Assembly (NCBI GenBank): GCA_951406725.2
Contig: OX597815.1
Coordinates: 209,746,001-209,810,000, forward strand
Reading direction: 5' to 3'
DNA: 64,000 nt
Origin: Octopus vulgaris
Lineage: Eukaryota
Shown: positions 4,879 through 63,591 of the stretch, piece by piece
Layout: every line of letters starts with the position of its first letter
How positions within the stretch are numbered: the first letter of the stretch is position 1
Notes under the pieces: generated by a model
Database searches by the model: none
Seen by the model: only the letters and a program-made list of their open reading frames with translations
What the model was told of the DNA's origin: nothing
Program-made: the position numbers and the translations under genes

Positions 4879-5295
4879 ATGGGTCATCCCATAAATGATG
4901 TTCCATCTAATGGCAGTTTTGCAAGGCCCCTCTTCCAAAATTCACTTGGCCGTGACGAAAAATACTCTTCCAGTACTCTATTGACGTCGTCTATAGAATT
5001 CAAATCATTTTGAAGACTGCGGAATAAATGATAACCAGAGGAAGCAATGTCTGTCGAATATGGTGGGTGGGGCATCGTTTCCAATTCAAACTGTTTCAGC
5101 TTTTGGAATGATATCCTCACTGTATGTGGCAGAGCATTATCCGGATATAAGAACAGCTTTTTCGTCTTGGAATGAAAGATGGTCGTTATTCTTCTAGCGC
5201 AGGTGTCGATGAAGGTTTGAATGACAAAATCCAAGCTTTTCTGATAGTTCCTCAATAGTTACAATGGAATTTTGCTCCACCAGGAGTTGCAGGAC
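4879..5295 (-). mobile_element. Degenerate mariner transposase fragment
   Basis: The ORF at 4884-5255 has PDNALPH (HDNARPH-like) and HPPYSTDIASSGYHLFRSLQN (YSPDLAPSDYHLF-like). A TIR remnant GGGTCATCCCATAAAT matches the element at 14591. Confidence 0.88.
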
Positions 5296-17062: not shown

Positions 17063-17940
17063 TTAACAATGCTGATTGCAATCAGCACTTTTCTCTTTGG
17101 TTAAATAGAGATCCCTGCAGAAGTCCTTTAGAGCCTCTTGAGAAAATGGTATTGGTTTATTCTCACTTTCTGGATCATTGGGCTCCACACATTCACCACT
17201 GGAATGTTCATCAGCACTGCTGGAACTCTGCATTTCTTTACCTGGAGGTTTGGGCACAGGTGAATTTTCTGAGTGCTCTACTGGGCGCATTGCTGATTGC
17301 AAATTTGGGTAGACAATGTGTTTCTTTTTCTTTGCTGTAGTACAGCCTTTAAAGTCATGGTGACAGAAATAGCAATCATTAGAGCGATCTTTCTGCTCAC
17401 GCCGAATCATTGGAACACCAAACTTCATGTGAACATTCTTTCCTGAACACCAGGCACTCAATGTTTTCACACATATAAGGCGACCCACAAGAGGAGCCCA
17501 TGACTGATCCTGGTCTCCTAAGTAACAATCGAAGTATGCCTTGTATATTTTCTTGATATGGCGTGTAATACTGCGCTTTTCTTTAGCAAAAGTCAATTCT
17601 CCACAGATATAACAGAATCTGTTTGGATCATTTTTGCACTGTCTTGCACTCATTGTTGAAAATAAATAAGATCTGAAAGCTAAAAGATAGCATTAAACAC
17701 AAGCTTTGAATCACATTGTAGGTGCTACTCAGATTGGTCTCTAGCCCTGGATTGAAACCCATTTTACAATGCGATAGAGAATTTTATTTAATAATAATGA
17801 CAAAAAGGGTATACAATGACAATTCTGTGGAAACCATGCCTAATTCAACAAAAAGAAGGCCAGAAATGGATTTCTCGTGTCATTTTGCATATAAAAATGG
17901 CCACAGATCTCCTGTACTTTTTTTTGAGTGTTGCACAGTG
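17063..17940 (-). mobile_element. Chapaev3-like (CMC) DNA transposon 5' end with truncated transposase ORF 17063-17653
   Basis: N-terminal motifs CKNDPNRFCYICG, YKAYF..GDQDQSWAP and KFGVPMIRREQKDRSNDCYFC. The terminus begins CACTGTGCAAC at 17940. Family assignment is from recalled motif similarity. Confidence 0.75.
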
Positions 17941-56027: not shown

Positions 56028-56065
<38 letters not shown>

Positions 56066-56069
<4 letters not shown>

Positions 56070-58086
56070 CCATTCACCCACTAGAAATAACAGCCAAAGC
56101 TTCTACCGCAAATAAAGATCAATTCCGTAAACAGGAGAAAATTAAAAAAACATTTACCCTGTAATTTCTTGTACGGTATACCGTTTCATCTGCTGTTTAA
56201 TGGTAAACTAACCTGATTAAATTAAATCAAGCCAATCTTCCATAAGCCCTCAGATTCTTCAGCAAGAAATAGCTCAAGTCGGAACAGATATTTACACGAG
56301 GCATACCCAATCCTGCCAAGGCAATATCTGACCTAAAATTTTCAAATCGTCGCACTCGCGCCAAATTTATCGGCAGCAAATAAATCGTCGATTCCATTAC
56401 GGAATTAACCAAAAAATTCATAATTAATCAATATAGGGTGGCAAGGAAAATTTTGTAGAATTTTTTTGCCACCAGCGGCCCAGTGGGAAAAAATTAAATA
56501 GTCATAGACCATTTTTAAGTTCAACATTAACAATTAAGGAACGGCCATAATAGGCCATTCACCCACTAGAAATAACAGCCAAAGCTTCTACCGCAAATAA
56601 AGATCAATTCCGTAAACAGGAGAAAATTAAAAAAACATTTACCCTGTAATTTCTTGTACGGTATACCGTTTCATCTGCTGTTTAATGGTAAACTAACCTG
56701 ATTAAATTAAATCAAGCCAATCTTCCATAAGCCCTCAGATTCTTCAGCAAGAAATAGCTCAAGTCGGAACAGATATTTACACGAGGCATACCCAATCCTG
56801 CCAAGGCAATATCTGACCTAAAATTTTCAAATCGTCGCACTCGCGCCAAATTTATCGGCAGCAAATAAATCGTCGATTCCATTACGGAATTAACCAAAAA
56901 ATTCATAATTAATCAATATAGGGTGGCAAGGAAAATTTTGTAGAATTTTTTTGCCACCAGCGGCCCAGTGGGAAAAAATTAAATAGTCATAGACCATTTT
57001 TAAGTTCAACATTAACAATTAAGGAACGGCCATAATAGGCCATTCACCCACTAGAAATAACAGCCAAAGCTTCTACCGCAAATAAAGATCAATTCCGTAA
57101 ACAGGAGAAAATTAAAAAAACATTTACCCTGTAATTTCTTGTACGGTATACCGTTTCATCTGCTGTTTAATGGTAAACTAACCTGATTAAATTAAATCAA
57201 GCCAATCTTCCATAAGCCCTCAGATTCTTCAGCAAGAAATAGCTCAAGTCGGAACAGATATTTACACGAGGCATACCCAATCCTGCCAAGGCAATATCTG
57301 ACCTAAAATTTTCAAATCGTCGCACTCGCGCCAAATTTATCGGCAGCAAATAAATCGTCGATTCCATTACGGAATTAACCAAAAAATTCATAATTAATCA
57401 ATATAGGGTGGCAAGGAAAATTTTGTAGAATTTTTTTGCCACCAGCGGCCCAGTGGGAAAAAATTAAATAGTCATAGACCATTTTTAAGTTCAACATTAA
57501 CAATTAAGGAACGGCCATAATAGGCCATTCACCCACTAGAAATAACAGCCAAAGCTTCTACCGCAAATAAAGATCAATTCCGTAAACAGGAGAAAATTAA
57601 AAAAACATTTACCCTGTAATTTCTTGTACGGTATACCGTTTCATCTGCTGTTTAATGGTAAACTAACCTGATTAAATTAAATCAAGCCAATCTTCCATAA
57701 GCCCTCAGATTCTTCAGCAAGAAATAGCTCAAGTCGGAACAGATATTTACACGAGGCATACCCAATCCTGCCAAGGCAATATCTGACCTAAAATTTTCAA
57801 ATCGTCGCACTCGCGCCAAATTTATCGGCAGCAAATAAATCGTCGATTCCATTACGGAATTAACCAAAAAATTCATAATTAATCAATATAGGGTGGCAAG
57901 GAAAATTTTGTAGAATTTTTTTGCCACCAGCGGCCCAGTGGGAAAAAATTAAATAGTCATAGACCATTTTTAAGTTCAACATTAACAATTAAGGAACGGC
58001 CATAATAGGCCATTCACCCACTAGAAATAACAGCCAAAGCTTCTACCGCAAATAAAGATCAATTCCGTAAACAGGAGAAAACATTT
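56066..58086 (-). mobile_element. 485-bp hammerhead (retrozyme-like) tandem array, left block, about 4.2 units
   Basis: Exact 485-bp period (ORF track repeats at 56227, 56712, 57197, 57682). Starts directly after (TA)n at TAGGCC. Confidence 0.95.
56164..56270 (-). ncRNA. Type I hammerhead ribozyme (also at 56649-56755, 57134-57240, 57619-57725)
   Basis: Reverse complement of the motif described at 58314-58420. Confidence 0.92.
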
Positions 58087-61000
58087 TATTTTAATTTTTT
58101 CCCACTGGCGTGGTGCAAAAAAATTCTACAAAATTTTCCTTGCCACCCTATATTGATTAATTATGAATTTTTTGGTTAATTCCGTAATGGAATCGACGAT
58201 TTATTTGCTGCCGATAAATTTGGCGCGAGTGCGACGATTTGAAAATTTTAGGTCAGATATTGCCTTGGCAGGATTGGGTATGCCTCGTGTAAATATCTGT
58301 TCCGACTTGAGCTATTTCTTGCTGAAGAATCTGAGGGCTTATGGAAGATTGGCTTGATTTAATTTAATCAGGTTAGTTTACCATTAAACAGCAGATGAAA
58401 CGGTATACCGTACAAGAAATTACAGGGTAAATGTTTTTTTAATTTTCTCCTGTTTACGGAATTGATCTTTATTTGCGGTAGAAGCTTTGGCTGTTATTTC
58501 TAGTGGGTGAATGGCCTATTATGGCCGTTCCTTAATTGTTAATGTTGAACTTAAAAATGGTCTATGACTATTTAATTTTTTCCCACTGGGCCGCTGGTGG
58601 CAAAAAAATTCTACAAAATTTTCCTTGCCACCCTATATTGATTAATTATGAATTTTTTGGTTAATTCCGTAATGGAATCGACGATTTATTTGCTGCCGAT
58701 AAATTTGGCGCGAGTGCGACGATTTGAAAATTTTAGGTCAGATATTGCCTTGGCAGGATTGGGTATGCCTCGTGTAAATATCTGTTCCGACTTGAGCTAT
58801 TTCTTGCTGAAGAATCTGAGGGCTTATGGAAGATTGGCTTGATTTAATTTAATCAGGTTAGTTTACCATTAAACAGCAGATGAAACGGTATACCGTACAA
58901 GAAATTACAGGGTAAATGTTTTTTTAATTTTCTCCTGTTTACGGAATTGATCTTTATTTGCGGTAGAAGCTTTGGCTGTTATTTCTAGTGGGTGAATGGC
59001 CTATTATGGCCGTTCCTTAATTGTTAATGTTGAACTTAAAAATGGTCTATGACTATTTAATTTTTTCCCACTGGGCCGCTGGTGGCAAAAAAATTCTACA
59101 AAATTTTCCTTGCCACCCTATATTGATTAATTATGAATTTTTTGGTTAATTCCGTAATGGAATCGACGATTTATTTGCTGCCGATAAATTTGGCGCGAGT
59201 GCGACGATTTGAAAATTTTAGGTCAGATATTGCCTTGGCAGGATTGGGTATGCCTCGTGTAAATATCTGTTCCGACTTGAGCTATTTCTTGCTGAAGAAT
59301 CTGAGGGCTTATGGAAGATTGGCTTGATTTAATTTAATCAGGTTAGTTTACCATTAAACAGCAGATGAAACGGTATACCGTACAAGAAATTACAGGGTAA
59401 ATGTTTTTTTAATTTTCTCCTGTTTACGGAATTGATCTTTATTTGCGGTAGAAGCTTTGGCTGTTATTTCTAGTGGGTGAATGGCCTATTATGGCCGTTC
59501 CTTAATTGTTAATGTTGAACTTAAAAATGGTCTATGACTATTTAATTTTTTCCCACTGGGCCGCTGGTGGCAAAAAAATTCTACAAAATTTTCCTTGCCA
59601 CCCTATATTGATTAATTATGAATTTTTTGGTTAATTCCGTAATGGAATCGACGATTTATTTGCTGCCGATAAATTTGGCGCGAGTGCGACGATTTGAAAA
59701 TTTTAGGTCAGATATTGCCTTGGCAGGATTGGGTATGCCTCGTGTAAATATCTGTTCCGACTTGAGCTATTTCTTGCTGAAGAATCTGAGGGCTTATGGA
59801 AGATTGGCTTGATTTAATTTAATCAGGTTAGTTTACCATTAAACAGCAGATGAAACGGTATACCGTACAAGAAATTACAGGGTAAATGTTTTTTTAATTT
59901 TCTCCTGTTTACGGAATTGATCTTTATTTGCGGTAGAAGCTTTGGCTGTTATTTCTAGTGGGTGAATGGCCTATTATGGCCGTTCCTTAATTGTTAATGT
60001 TGAACTTAAAAATGGTCTATGACTATTTAATTTTTTCCCACTGGGCCGCTGGTGGCAAAAAAATTCTACAAAATTTTCCTTGCCACCCTATATTGATTAA
60101 TTATGAATTTTTTGGTTAATTCCGTAATGGAATCGACGATTTATTTGCTGCCGATAAATTTGGCGCGAGTGCGACGATTTGAAAATTTTAGGTCAGATAT
60201 TGCCTTGGCAGGATTGGGTATGCCTCGTGTAAATATCTGTTCCGACTTGAGCTATTTCTTGCTGAAGAATCTGAGGGCTTATGGAAGATTGGCTTGATTT
60301 AATTTAATCAGGTTAGTTTACCATTAAACAGCAGATGAAACGGTATACCGTACAAGAAATTACAGGGTAAATGTTTTTTTAATTTTCTCCTGTTTACGGA
60401 ATTGATCTTTATTTGCGGTAGAAGCTTTGGCTGTTATTTCTAGTGGGTGAATGGCCTATTATGGCCGTTCCTTAATTGTTAATGTTGAACTTAAAAATGG
60501 TCTATGACTATTTAATTTTTTCCCACTGGGCCGCTGGTGGCAAAAAAATTCTACAAAATTTTCCTTGCCACCCTATATTGATTAATTATGAATTTTTTGG
60601 TTAATTCCGTAATGGAATCGACGATTTATTTGCTGCCGATAAATTTGGCGCGAGTGCGACGATTTGAAAATTTTAGGTCAGATATTGCCTTGGCAGGATT
60701 GGGTATGCCTCGTGTAAATATCTGTTCCGACTTGAGCTATTTCTTGCTGAAGAATCTGAGGGCTTATGGAAGATTGGCTTGATTTAATTTAATCAGGTTA
60801 GTTTACCATTAAACAGCAGATGAAACGGTATACCGTACAAGAAATTACAGGGTAAATGTTTTTTTAATTTTCTCCTGTTTACGGAATTGATCTTTATTTG
60901 CGGTAGAAGCTTTGGCTGTTATTTCTAGTGGGTGAATGGCCTATTATGGCCGTTCCTTAATTGTTAATGTTGAACTTAAAAATGGTCTATGACTATTTAA

Positions 61001-62036
61001 TTTTTTCCCACTGGGCCGCTGGTGGCAAAAAAATTCTACAAAATTTTCCTTGCCACCCTATATTGATTAATTATGAATTTTTTGGTTAATTCCGTAATGG
61101 AATCGACGATTTATTTGCTGCCGATAAATTTGGCGCGAGTGCGACGATTTGAAAATTTTAGGTCAGATATTGCCTTGGCAGGATTGGGTATGCCTCGTGT
61201 AAATATCTGTTCCGACTTGAGCTATTTCTTGCTGAAGAATCTGAGGGCTTATGGAAGATTGGCTTGATTTAATTTAATCAGGTTAGTTTACCATTAAACA
61301 GCAGATGAAACGGTATACCGTACAAGAAATTACAGGGTAAATGTTTTTTTAATTTTCTCCTGTTTACGGAATTGATCTTTATTTGCGGTAGAAGCTTTGG
61401 CTGTTATTTCTAGTGGGTGAATGGCCTATTATGGCCGTTCCTTAATTGTTAATGTTGAACTTAAAAATGGTCTATGACTATTTAATTTTTTCCCACTGGG
61501 CCGCTGGTGGCAAAAAAATTCTACAAAATTTTCCTTGCCACCCTATATTGATTAATTATGAATTTTTTGGTTAATTCCGTAATGGAATCGACGATTTATT
61601 TGCTGCCGATAAATTTGGCGCGAGTGCGACGATTTGAAAATTTTAGGTCAGATATTGCCTTGGCAGGATTGGGTATGCCTCGTGTAAATATCTGTTCCGA
61701 CTTGAGCTATTTCTTGCTGAAGAATCTGAGGGCTTATGGAAGATTGGCTTGATTTAATTTAATCAGGTTAGTTTACCATTAAACAGCAGATGATACGGTA
61801 TACCGTACAAGAAATTACAGGGTAAATGTTTTTTTAATTTTCTCCTGTTTACGGAATTGATCTTTATTTGCGGTAGAAGCTTTGGCTGTTATTTCTAGTG
61901 GGTGAATGGCCTATTATGGCCGTTCCTTAATTGTTAATGTTGAACTTAAAAATGGTCTATGACTATTTAATTTTTTCCCACTGGGCCGCTGGTGGCAAAA
62001 AAATTCTACAAAATTTTCCTTGCCACCCTATATTGA

Positions 62037-62044
<8 letters not shown>
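58087..62044 (+). mobile_element. 485-bp hammerhead (retrozyme-like) tandem array, right block, about 8.2 units
   Basis: Exact 485-bp period (ORF repeats from 58163 to 61558). Ends at ATTAATTAT running into (TA)n. Confidence 0.95.
58314..58420 (+). ncRNA. Type I hammerhead ribozyme (also at 58799, 59284, 59769, 60254, 60739, 61224 and a core-mutant copy at 61709)
   Basis: Stem I ATTTCTTG (58314-21)/CAAGAAAT (58413-20); core CTGAAGA (58322-28); stem II ATCTG/CAGAT with a 58-nt loop; GAAA (58397-400); stem III CGG-TATA-CCG; GUA triplet with cleavage predicted after 58412. Confidence 0.92.
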
Positions 62045-62067
<23 letters not shown>

Positions 62068-62089
62068 GCGGCGTACATACCCTCTCTCT

Positions 62090-62790: not shown

Positions 62791-62977
62791 CCGGTATTAA
62801 GGAAGGATAGGAAAATATTAAATTTATAAGCCCTAAAATTCATTCCATCATTGCCCGCGGGCATATGGTGTGATGGTTAAGAGCGCTACTATCTCCAAGA
62901 TTCCTAGGTTAGTAATAATAATAATAACATCAAAAAATACCTTAGGAATGAGAGTCCAGGTTCGAAATTTCCCCAAG

Positions 62978-63020
62978 ACACCTGATGAAGGCTGGAGAGT
63001 ATATCAGCCGAAACATTGTG
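62978..63020 (+). ncRNA. PLE pLTR minimal hammerhead (probably decayed)
   Basis: CAC-CTGATGA-A-GGCTG(gagagtatat)CAGCC-GAAA-CA-TT-GTG. Stem III reads ACAT, one change from palindromic ACGT. It lies downstream of the PLE endonuclease. Confidence 0.7.
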
Positions 63021-63591
63021 GTAACAACAAACAAGGTGTGGACAAATATCCGTGAAATGTAAATAATGTAAATGTTTGCATGTGTTATAGAAAACGTACT
63101 ATTGAGAAAATAAAATAAGATGAAAGTGTTGGAAATTATATTTTGCTAATGCGTCCTAAGGTTTTGTCACAGTGTAAATATTGATGCGCAGACTGGAAAG
63201 AAAATAACTTTGAAGTAGGTTTATTTTAATTTAAAAAATGAATAAGCCTAGAATTCCCAGAAGACATCATACCGTCATGAATCATACTTAAGAGTAATCT
63301 TCTTTTACTAATGTCTTTCTTTTTCATACATTGAATTTAGTTTTATAAACTATTTTAAGCATTCATTATTTATTTAAAATTTTATCAATTTTCAGATCAC
63401 TCGAGACCTTTGGTGTGTATTGGAAGGGTTTGATTGATTGCAATTAATTGCTAATAATATGATGAAACAATGCTGTGAGGGAGAAAACTATATAGACAAA
63501 AAGGTACAAAGAGAAAAAGACTTAGAGGTGATATAATGGAAACAATAGAGATTAGATGTCATAAAAACAAGTTAATGGCTTGTGTACACAT

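Follow-up and report, generated by a model that had tools for sequence, protein, structure and literature searches.

A young two-armed hammerhead retrozyme insertion in Octopus vulgaris and its probable origin by Penelope-type priming from both target strands

A stretch of 64,000 nucleotides (nt) of the Octopus vulgaris genome (assembly GCA_951406725.2, contig OX597815.1, positions 209,746,001 to 209,810,000 of the forward strand), here called the window, harbours an insertion composed of two tandem blocks of a single short unit, which carries a type I hammerhead ribozyme. The unit has a period of 485 nt in both blocks and a G + C content of about 0.36. No reading frame of at least 120 aa, including a frame for reverse transcriptase (RT) and GIY-YIG endonuclease, was found at the locus.

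Block 1 (56065-58081) has the ribozyme sense on the minus strand and comprises 4.16 units, whereas block 2 (58090-62044) has it on the plus strand and comprises 8.15 units. The blocks are joined head to head by an insert of 8 extra nt (58082-58089) and are flanked by (AT)n target tracts on the left (56031-56064) and on the right (62045-62066). When registers are counted from the first base 3' of the hammerhead cut (register 1), the sense 3' outer end of block 1 is register 107 (...GGCCTAT) and that of block 2 is register 237 (...ATTAATTAT), both running into (AT)n. The inner ends are registers 31 (block 1) and 159 (block 2). The four cut sites of block 1 are on the minus strand, with 56172, 56657, 57142 and 57627 as the last bases before the cut, and the eight of block 2 are on the plus strand, with cuts after 58412, 58897, 59382, 59867, 60352, 60837, 61322 and 61807. 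A preliminary description of the locus had stated that the ribozyme-sense 3' ends of both blocks face outward into (TA)n at different registers, that the blocks hold about 4 and 8 turns and that neither end coincides with the ribozyme cut; all of this was confirmed, with 4 + 8 cut sites being read through. Block 1 shows zero differences from the unit. Block 2 lacks four bases beside the junction (near 58106-58114) and contains the sole substitution of the locus, an A>T at 61794 (plus) in the GAAA core of the outermost right-arm ribozyme. The missing bases may be consensus errors, because deletions at registers 176-182 recur singly in other loci.

The hammerhead was found by hand and consists, in each unit, of stem I, CUGAAGA, a long stem II, GAAA, a short palindromic stem III and GUA. 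One example of the 12 is located at 58315-58419 (plus), with stem I formed by 58315-58321 and 58413-58419, the core CUGAAGA at 58322 and the cut after GUA at 58412. Alignment of 12 copies (11 distinct) yielded 97.2% of cells paired and 4 of 16 pairs changed on both sides, compared to 39-48% paired and zero two-sided changes in slid controls. These values are support, not proof, since the aligned copies share ancestry and the one in the window served as the source of the structure. A comparison with Rfam gave 0 matches at the gathering score in the window and 4 chance matches only (E 6-10) for one unit. The unit folds far better than shuffled sequences (z = -7.2). Its antisense strand lacks a hammerhead core (other ribozyme classes were checked via Rfam only), in contrast to viroid-like RNA with symmetric rolling-circle replication.

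The genome searched comprises 2.8 Gb in 227 contigs, in which the unit family has 1,346 candidate matches, 40 of them scored. The family is dispersed, with at least 741 ends found as exact matches to the right-hand end plus TA. This right-hand type of end is designated L and the other type S; the L-end count is not comparable with the S-end counts of 45 and 293, as the S patterns miss a common older variant. Three samples were analysed. Sample 1 consists of the window and 39 best-match loci (38 after two duplicates were dropped), which were chosen for full-length matches and are young. The older sample 2 consists of the first 40 loci listed by the L-end pattern, and sample 3 of 19 further loci listed by the S-end pattern together with one cluster. 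Left out before counting were L057 and L064 (duplicates of L056 and L065), unrelated secondary blocks in sample 1 and the inner end of L068 (gap), and variant counts exclude 80 homopolymer or indel-prone registers. The near-identical pair L056/L057 lies on a duplicated segment of contig C30, and the pair L064/L065 on C32 and C13; L064 is without the short S arm present in L065. No terminal repeats other than the unit were seen.

Of the 78 loci that make up samples 1 and 2, 59 have two arms, without exception in divergent orientation (29/29 and 30/30), which is far beyond chance. (TA)n was found at both outer ends of 55 of these 59 loci (28/29 in sample 1, 27/30 in sample 2). The outer ends fall into two narrow classes, S at registers ~124-136 (mode 131) and L at ~230-241 (mode 237); block 1 of the window is an S-type arm and block 2 an L-type arm. 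Sample 1 features 26 S+L pairs among 29 two-armed loci, the three odd ones being the window, L044 and L056. Sample 2 features 27 among 30, and one of its three odd loci, L150, proved to be S+L on extension. The 19 S-chosen loci of sample 3 comprise 14 S+L pairs, 2 loci with an L arm of 10-17 nt and 3 single-armed loci. Overall, 68 S+L, zero S+S and zero L+L were counted among two-armed loci with both ends classifiable, while an independent choice of start at even odds predicts about half S+L.

A hairpin precedes each of the two ends. The S hairpin (58509-58530, plus; one per unit) is followed by a 13-nt AU-rich linker to the S start at register 131 (58543), and the L hairpin (58596-58632, plus) by a 17-nt linker to the L start at register 237 (58649); the terminal copy of L hairpin and linker is 61991-62044. 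The tail between them spans registers 132-237 and is 106 nt long. In a distant subfamily of ~70% identity, both hairpins and both ends are kept. Because the classes are narrow, each start is preceded by a hairpin and linker and both are kept in this subfamily, we conclude that the outer ends are two fixed start sites, of which one is used per arm. The TA target and the priming of both DNA ends on a same-sense template, as proposed in the preliminary description, are supported by these counts. Its suggestion that the ends were set by chance TAT microhomologies at a spontaneous break has to be abandoned in favour of two fixed starts (68/68 classifiable loci). Likewise, in the tabulation of ends, flanks and orientation over many loci that it recommended, divergence and TA preference held, but the termini proved to be fixed.

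For L040, 32 other copies of the host repeat have the two flanks as one continuous stretch, and for L041 there are 35 such copies, which shows that these insertions went cleanly into a TA tract. Such colinearity with the empty state was seen at 3 of the 25 loci with repeat matches on both flanks (L040, L041 and, weakly, L151), the other 22 being uninformative. Two loci contain rearranged units. At L194:2063-2631, an S arm holds a deleted unit of ~245 nt (register 139 joined to 380) in tandem, which is half-size and has no L site. L202 (G000:C4:46282300-46286500) was suspected to be S+S and was rejected as such; it is a rearranged unit with internal S-plus-TA pieces, and its true ends are outside the stretch read. 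In this unit, the place of the L hairpin is taken by a second S site, and a TA-rich piece of flank has been captured and is repeated in both arms, which suggests that a read-through transcript founded a new template.

Comparison of the two arms of a locus with arms of other loci points to a common origin. In sample 1, arm divergence is 0.12% within a locus and 0.72% to other loci (25/25 loci), and in sample 2 the values are 0.55% and 6.1% (21/21 testable loci). Since the arms share locus-specific variants, one template haplotype served both, as had been proposed for the window. Each of 65 rare substitution records is carried by every copy covering the site in its locus. Among 9,699 columns with at least 4 copies, 61 minor alleles occur in a single copy and only 4 in two or more copies. 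This pattern implies a bottleneck of one unit followed by repeated copying, and a monomer circle would supply such a bottleneck. The arms reach up to 14.4 turns.

The inner ends have been joined to each other, also in line with the preliminary description. Of 30 joints parsed (including one duplicate locus), 4 are blunt, 10 have an overlap of 1-5 nt and 16 have inserts, some of which are overestimated in length owing to nearby errors. Several inserts copy nearby sequence. These joint types resemble those of polymerase theta end joining. In 45 of 53 joints, more than 12 nt separate the inner registers, the largest difference being 230 nt. Of 12 short-armed loci, 7 have non-nested arms, each holding at least 15 nt absent from the other. 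The arms are thus mostly not mirror copies. A collision or common stop of two RTs was also considered, and the difference between inner registers was found not to be significantly clustered (Rayleigh p ~0.06, n = 37).

Candidates for the type of enzyme were found in the same genome. Matches to GIY-YIG (150 of 6,136 candidates scored) reveal two young Penelope-like families with RT + GIY-YIG frames of 781 and 775 aa, which we take to be Neptune-type because the 781-aa frame has a cysteine motif ahead of GIY-YIG. The members of each family terminate in (TA)n at two fixed points, which are 38 nt apart in one family and 32 nt in the other, and at each of the five loci where both ends could be seen, one end is of each kind (L082, L107, L109, L118, L172/173). 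A cysteine motif at this position has been described for Neptune (PMC8557442). The target was most likely cut by a Penelope-type endonuclease, because the layout is that of known tandem or inverted Penelope-like insertions with a tail at one end (PMC8557442, PMC3846280). At L105, L113 and L115, a 479-aa frame without a Pfam match precedes and overlaps the 781-aa frame, and the terminal repeat has a non-canonical hammerhead-like core.

Taken together, we conclude that the insertion at the window locus is genuine and very young and that it is a hammerhead retrozyme dependent on Penelope. Our preferred reading, to which we assign a probability of roughly 0.6, is that both target strands served as primers on one RNA, as in Penelope-type integration, and that a non-autonomous retrozyme was inserted in this way. 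The RNA was probably a monomer circle. Transcripts of tandem copies would be cleaved by the hammerhead, and a cellular ligase would close the resulting 485-nt monomers into circles (by analogy with PMC7229834). A Neptune-type RT-endonuclease, probably as a dimer, would then bind one RNA at S = 131 and L = 237 by way of hairpin and AU linker and cut both strands of (TA)n. Each DNA 3' end would prime cDNA, one at S and the other at L, in line with the observed pairing. Each RT would copy the same-sense template of one haplotype over a variable distance, often more than one turn and up to the 14.4 turns observed, presumably on a circle. Synthesis would stop, as observed, at registers that are nearly random, with stops about 3x more frequent just 3' of the cut or at a U-tract. 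Finally, the two single-stranded cDNA ends would be linked head to head, with the microhomology or templated inserts seen at the joints and possibly in a polymerase theta-like pathway of end joining, and filled in. The S arm of the window may then have lost 24 nt, or may have been primed at the TAT in the hairpin loop. Within this scheme, two-end, two-start priming on one template is very likely, and a closed monomer circle as the template is probable. We see an even chance that Penelope-type integration in general is twin priming by design, in which an asymmetric RT-endonuclease pair at two sites of one RNA extends one cut end with each subunit; on circular ribozyme RNA both subunits would roll, yielding mirror-image concatemers that are joined by the host.

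Several observations weigh against this reading. The left end of the window insertion, register 107, breaks the S rule; it is an outlier within the S-hairpin loop and stops 24 nt before the usual end at 131. No terminal repeat (pseudo-long terminal repeat, pLTR) homologous to the unit was found in 30 GIY-YIG loci, 20 longer stretches around GIY-YIG matches and 20 loci of the second family, and no parent element was found upstream of 40 L-anchored ends. L072 had been followed as a lead to a parent and was rejected as a separate 57-nt S-arm insertion. The tail of 106 nt is longer than the 30-40 nt of endonuclease-containing (EN+) Penelope-like elements. Nearly palindromic joints, with inner ends at most 12 nt apart, are found in 8 of 53 cases compared to 2.7 expected (p = 0.006). 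Arms stopped in 33 of 284 passes through registers 1-40, compared to 100 of 2,862 passes through other registers (p = 2e-9; among arms longer than one unit, 18 of 78), an excess just 3' of the cut that suits a template with its 5' end at the cut. At L059, four two-site haplotypes are mixed along a 14-turn arm, at L157 two substitutions alternate in phase along one arm, and at L150 one homopolymer-adjacent change is common to both arms. At L042, an A>G in the GAAA core is present in both ribozyme copies of an arm, so that either the RNA was edited after cleavage or an uncleaved template was copied. With Poseidon PAc in vitro, uncleaved RNA was the main substrate and the start site did not differ between strands (PMC11167929).

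Several of these points suit a template other than a closed monomer, with the same two-end, two-start priming. It could be a linear multimer that was uncleaved or partly cleaved, now and then a circular dimer, or a set of cleaved monomers, with the RT jumping from one to the next; we regard this as possible but doubtful. The stop excess would follow from run-off at a cleaved 5' end, but it may also reflect a re-cleaved circle or stalling, since a U-tract at registers 21-28, where slippage inserts recur (L046), coincides with the stop zone. The arms also crossed 251 cut sites, as opposed to the 33 stops near them. The mosaics of L059, L157 and L150 fit a multimer with an S start one unit further 5' than the L start, and block duplication, haplotype mixing and consensus error fit them too. 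These three loci are the only ones with turn-specific substitutions shared by two or more turns. Only L150 shows a turn-specific variant shared between arms at a constant offset outside homopolymer-length noise, and rows of L044 that had suggested such sharing were rejected as an alignment artefact. In addition, the short stem III may need a dimer to cleave. The core change of L042 and the preference of Poseidon PAc for unprocessed RNA point the same way. A dimer requirement for cleavage has been reported for vertebrate retrozymes (PMC7229834). Against a pure multimer stands that its copying cannot fix new variants across all turns, as found for the 65 rare records, nor regrow arms of 14 units. 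Of the rolling on a circle that the preliminary description had proposed, the circle remains the likeliest template at the strength given above, while the stop excess and the three mosaic loci leave room for a multimer or template jumping.

It is improbable that short two-armed insertions grew later by local duplication or unequal crossing-over, the route favoured for retrozymes by Li et al. (bioRxiv 10.64898/2026.07.22.740005). The alternation at L157 and the mosaic at L059 could be block duplication or conversion, and assembly polishing could homogenise units. However, changes of the post-insertion type are nearly all confined to a single turn (61 versus 4), and the same private variants occur in both oppositely oriented arms. 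The longest arrays are found in the youngest, near-identical subfamily, with median arms of 886/832 nt (in a sample chosen for full-length matches) compared to 410/361 nt. Later growth would also leave polarity and fixed ends unexplained; simple unequal crossing-over as the source of polarity had already been doubted in the preliminary description and is rejected here.

Self-priming by fold-back, in which the second arm would be a mirror copy of one cDNA (hypothesis in PMC3846280) and the tail would result from endonuclease resolution (PMC8557442), is very improbable and is largely refuted for this unit family. The excess of nearly palindromic joints is compatible with it, and a minority may form in this way or by annealing at local self-complementary sequence. 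The predominance of non-palindromic joints, the non-nested arms of short-armed loci and the inner ends of the window itself, at registers 31 and 159, contradict it.

Public sequencing runs were also compared. A stretch containing the unit occurs in 20 of 24 listed runs (9 studies, three organisms), none of which is on record as RNA. In four runs compared over 57950-58440, a stretch of 491 nt with one copy of the unit, the window junction was bridged by no listed contig, a result that is uninformative either way. This comparison of contigs brought to light neither a long read across the window locus nor an allele without the insertion, and a target-site duplication would be masked by (TA)n. In contrast, a DNA run of organism B features many joints from minus arm to plus arm at varied registers, some with inserts, which is independent short-read evidence of such joints outside this assembly. 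That fold-back reads or a collapsed repeat falsely joined two orientations in the assembly is hardly credible, since, despite the unbridged window junction and the missing bases beside it, each locus is joined in its own way, the arms follow the S/L rule, the host-repeat flanks of L040 and L041 are colinear and organism B shows such joints.

In run X1, whose RNA status is a guess, all letter differences listed over 57950-58440 are A>G in the ribozyme sense; one 137-nt contig has 8 of them, and they are mostly absent from the three other runs. In this one contig, the pattern looks like A-to-I hyper-editing, which is expected if the arms pair when transcribed. That such edits were written into DNA is not claimed, as the evidence is mixed: locus-fixed A>G and T>C changes number 10:2 in the young sample and 6:9 in the older one, with uncertain polarity.

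Animal retrozymes were defined, along with their RNA circles, by Cervera and de la Pena 2020 (PMC7229834), and were derived from Penelope pLTRs with arrays growing by local amplification by Li et al. (bioRxiv 10.64898/2026.07.22.740005). The unit family agrees with this definition in all sequence features tested. Like the animal non-LTR (long terminal repeat) retrozymes of both texts, for which mobility through circular RNA and dependence on Penelope-like elements have been proposed, the family consists of AT-rich, non-coding, dispersed tandem monomers, each with a type I hammerhead. The unit of 485-491 nt exceeds the quoted range of 150-450, a word search of both texts found no divergent two-armed insertions, fixed starts or TA targeting, and the arrays, in contrast to local amplification, look made at insertion.

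EN+ Penelope-like insertions are tandem or inverted, often have the tail at one end only, show a TA bias and have an undefined cycle (Craig et al. 2021, PMC8557442); for inverted repeats of Penelope, self-priming was proposed (Arkhipova et al. 2013, PMC3846280). The insertions described here resemble those of the EN+ Neptune clade in their 5'-truncated tandem copies with an inverted 5'-truncated copy head to head, the tail at one end only, the use of (TA)n as target and a hammerhead that lies upstream of the ends. They differ in that the unit family has no open reading frame and no homologous parent was found, that the joints are mostly non-palindromic and that both arms can run many turns of one short unit. 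Target-primed reverse transcription by Poseidon PAc in vitro cuts AT-rich DNA and extends both strands (Frangieh et al. 2024, PMC11167929), with two internal RT starts ~100 nt after the hammerhead defining the tail and a dimer being predicted. The AT-rich target, the extension of both strands and the two internal starts are shared with our family. The templates there were linear and starts were not linked to strands within one event, whereas here one start per arm is strict and the arms are multi-turn.

In L1 twin priming, attributed to Ostertag and Kazazian in 2001, both target 3' ends reportedly prime on one RNA, giving an inverted 5' segment, an outward sense 3' end and microhomology at the joint. 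Outward sense 3' ends from priming on both target strands are common to both systems. The present insertions are distinguished by the lack of poly(A), by a second start that is fixed and by being the rule instead of a minority outcome, and their arms overlap in sequence and exceed one template length. The window insertion works like twin priming but is not L1 twin priming.

Other features were noted in passing. An unrelated hammerhead family with a long stem II and palindromic stem III at L078:100-570 has two divergent arms by a TA tract and adjoins the 3' end of a Neptune element. An unrelated repeat of the window (62975-63040) contains a CUGAUGA...GAAA motif that resembles a hammerhead and has a closed stem II; it failed a strict scan for stems I and III. 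Two reading frames of the window (4884-5258 and 17063-17692, minus) look like decayed remnants of DNA transposons.

In the literature searched, which largely leaves subscription journals uncovered, no report was found of one-start-per-arm pairing or of two-armed, multi-turn retrozyme insertions. The mechanism behind tandem and inverted Penelope-like insertions and their tail has been stated to be unresolved (PMC8557442), and the origin of animal retrozyme arrays has so far been argued from distribution only. The parts of the scheme are already published; strict pairing, a shared haplotype and multi-turn arms make the open mechanism testable. The unit family provides hundreds of natural integration records of Penelope-type insertion, which speak for both target ends being primed at the same time, at two fixed sites of the RNA, and against self-priming by fold-back or later growth as a satellite being the main routes. 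A 485-nt RNA, a TA target and young intact Neptune frames in one genome form a minimal test system. If the proposed mechanism is true, animal hammerhead tandem arrays would be born at insertion, the Penelope tail and inverted repeat would follow from one rule, and the family would be an example, in vivo, of a rolling circle being reverse-transcribed into a chromosome.

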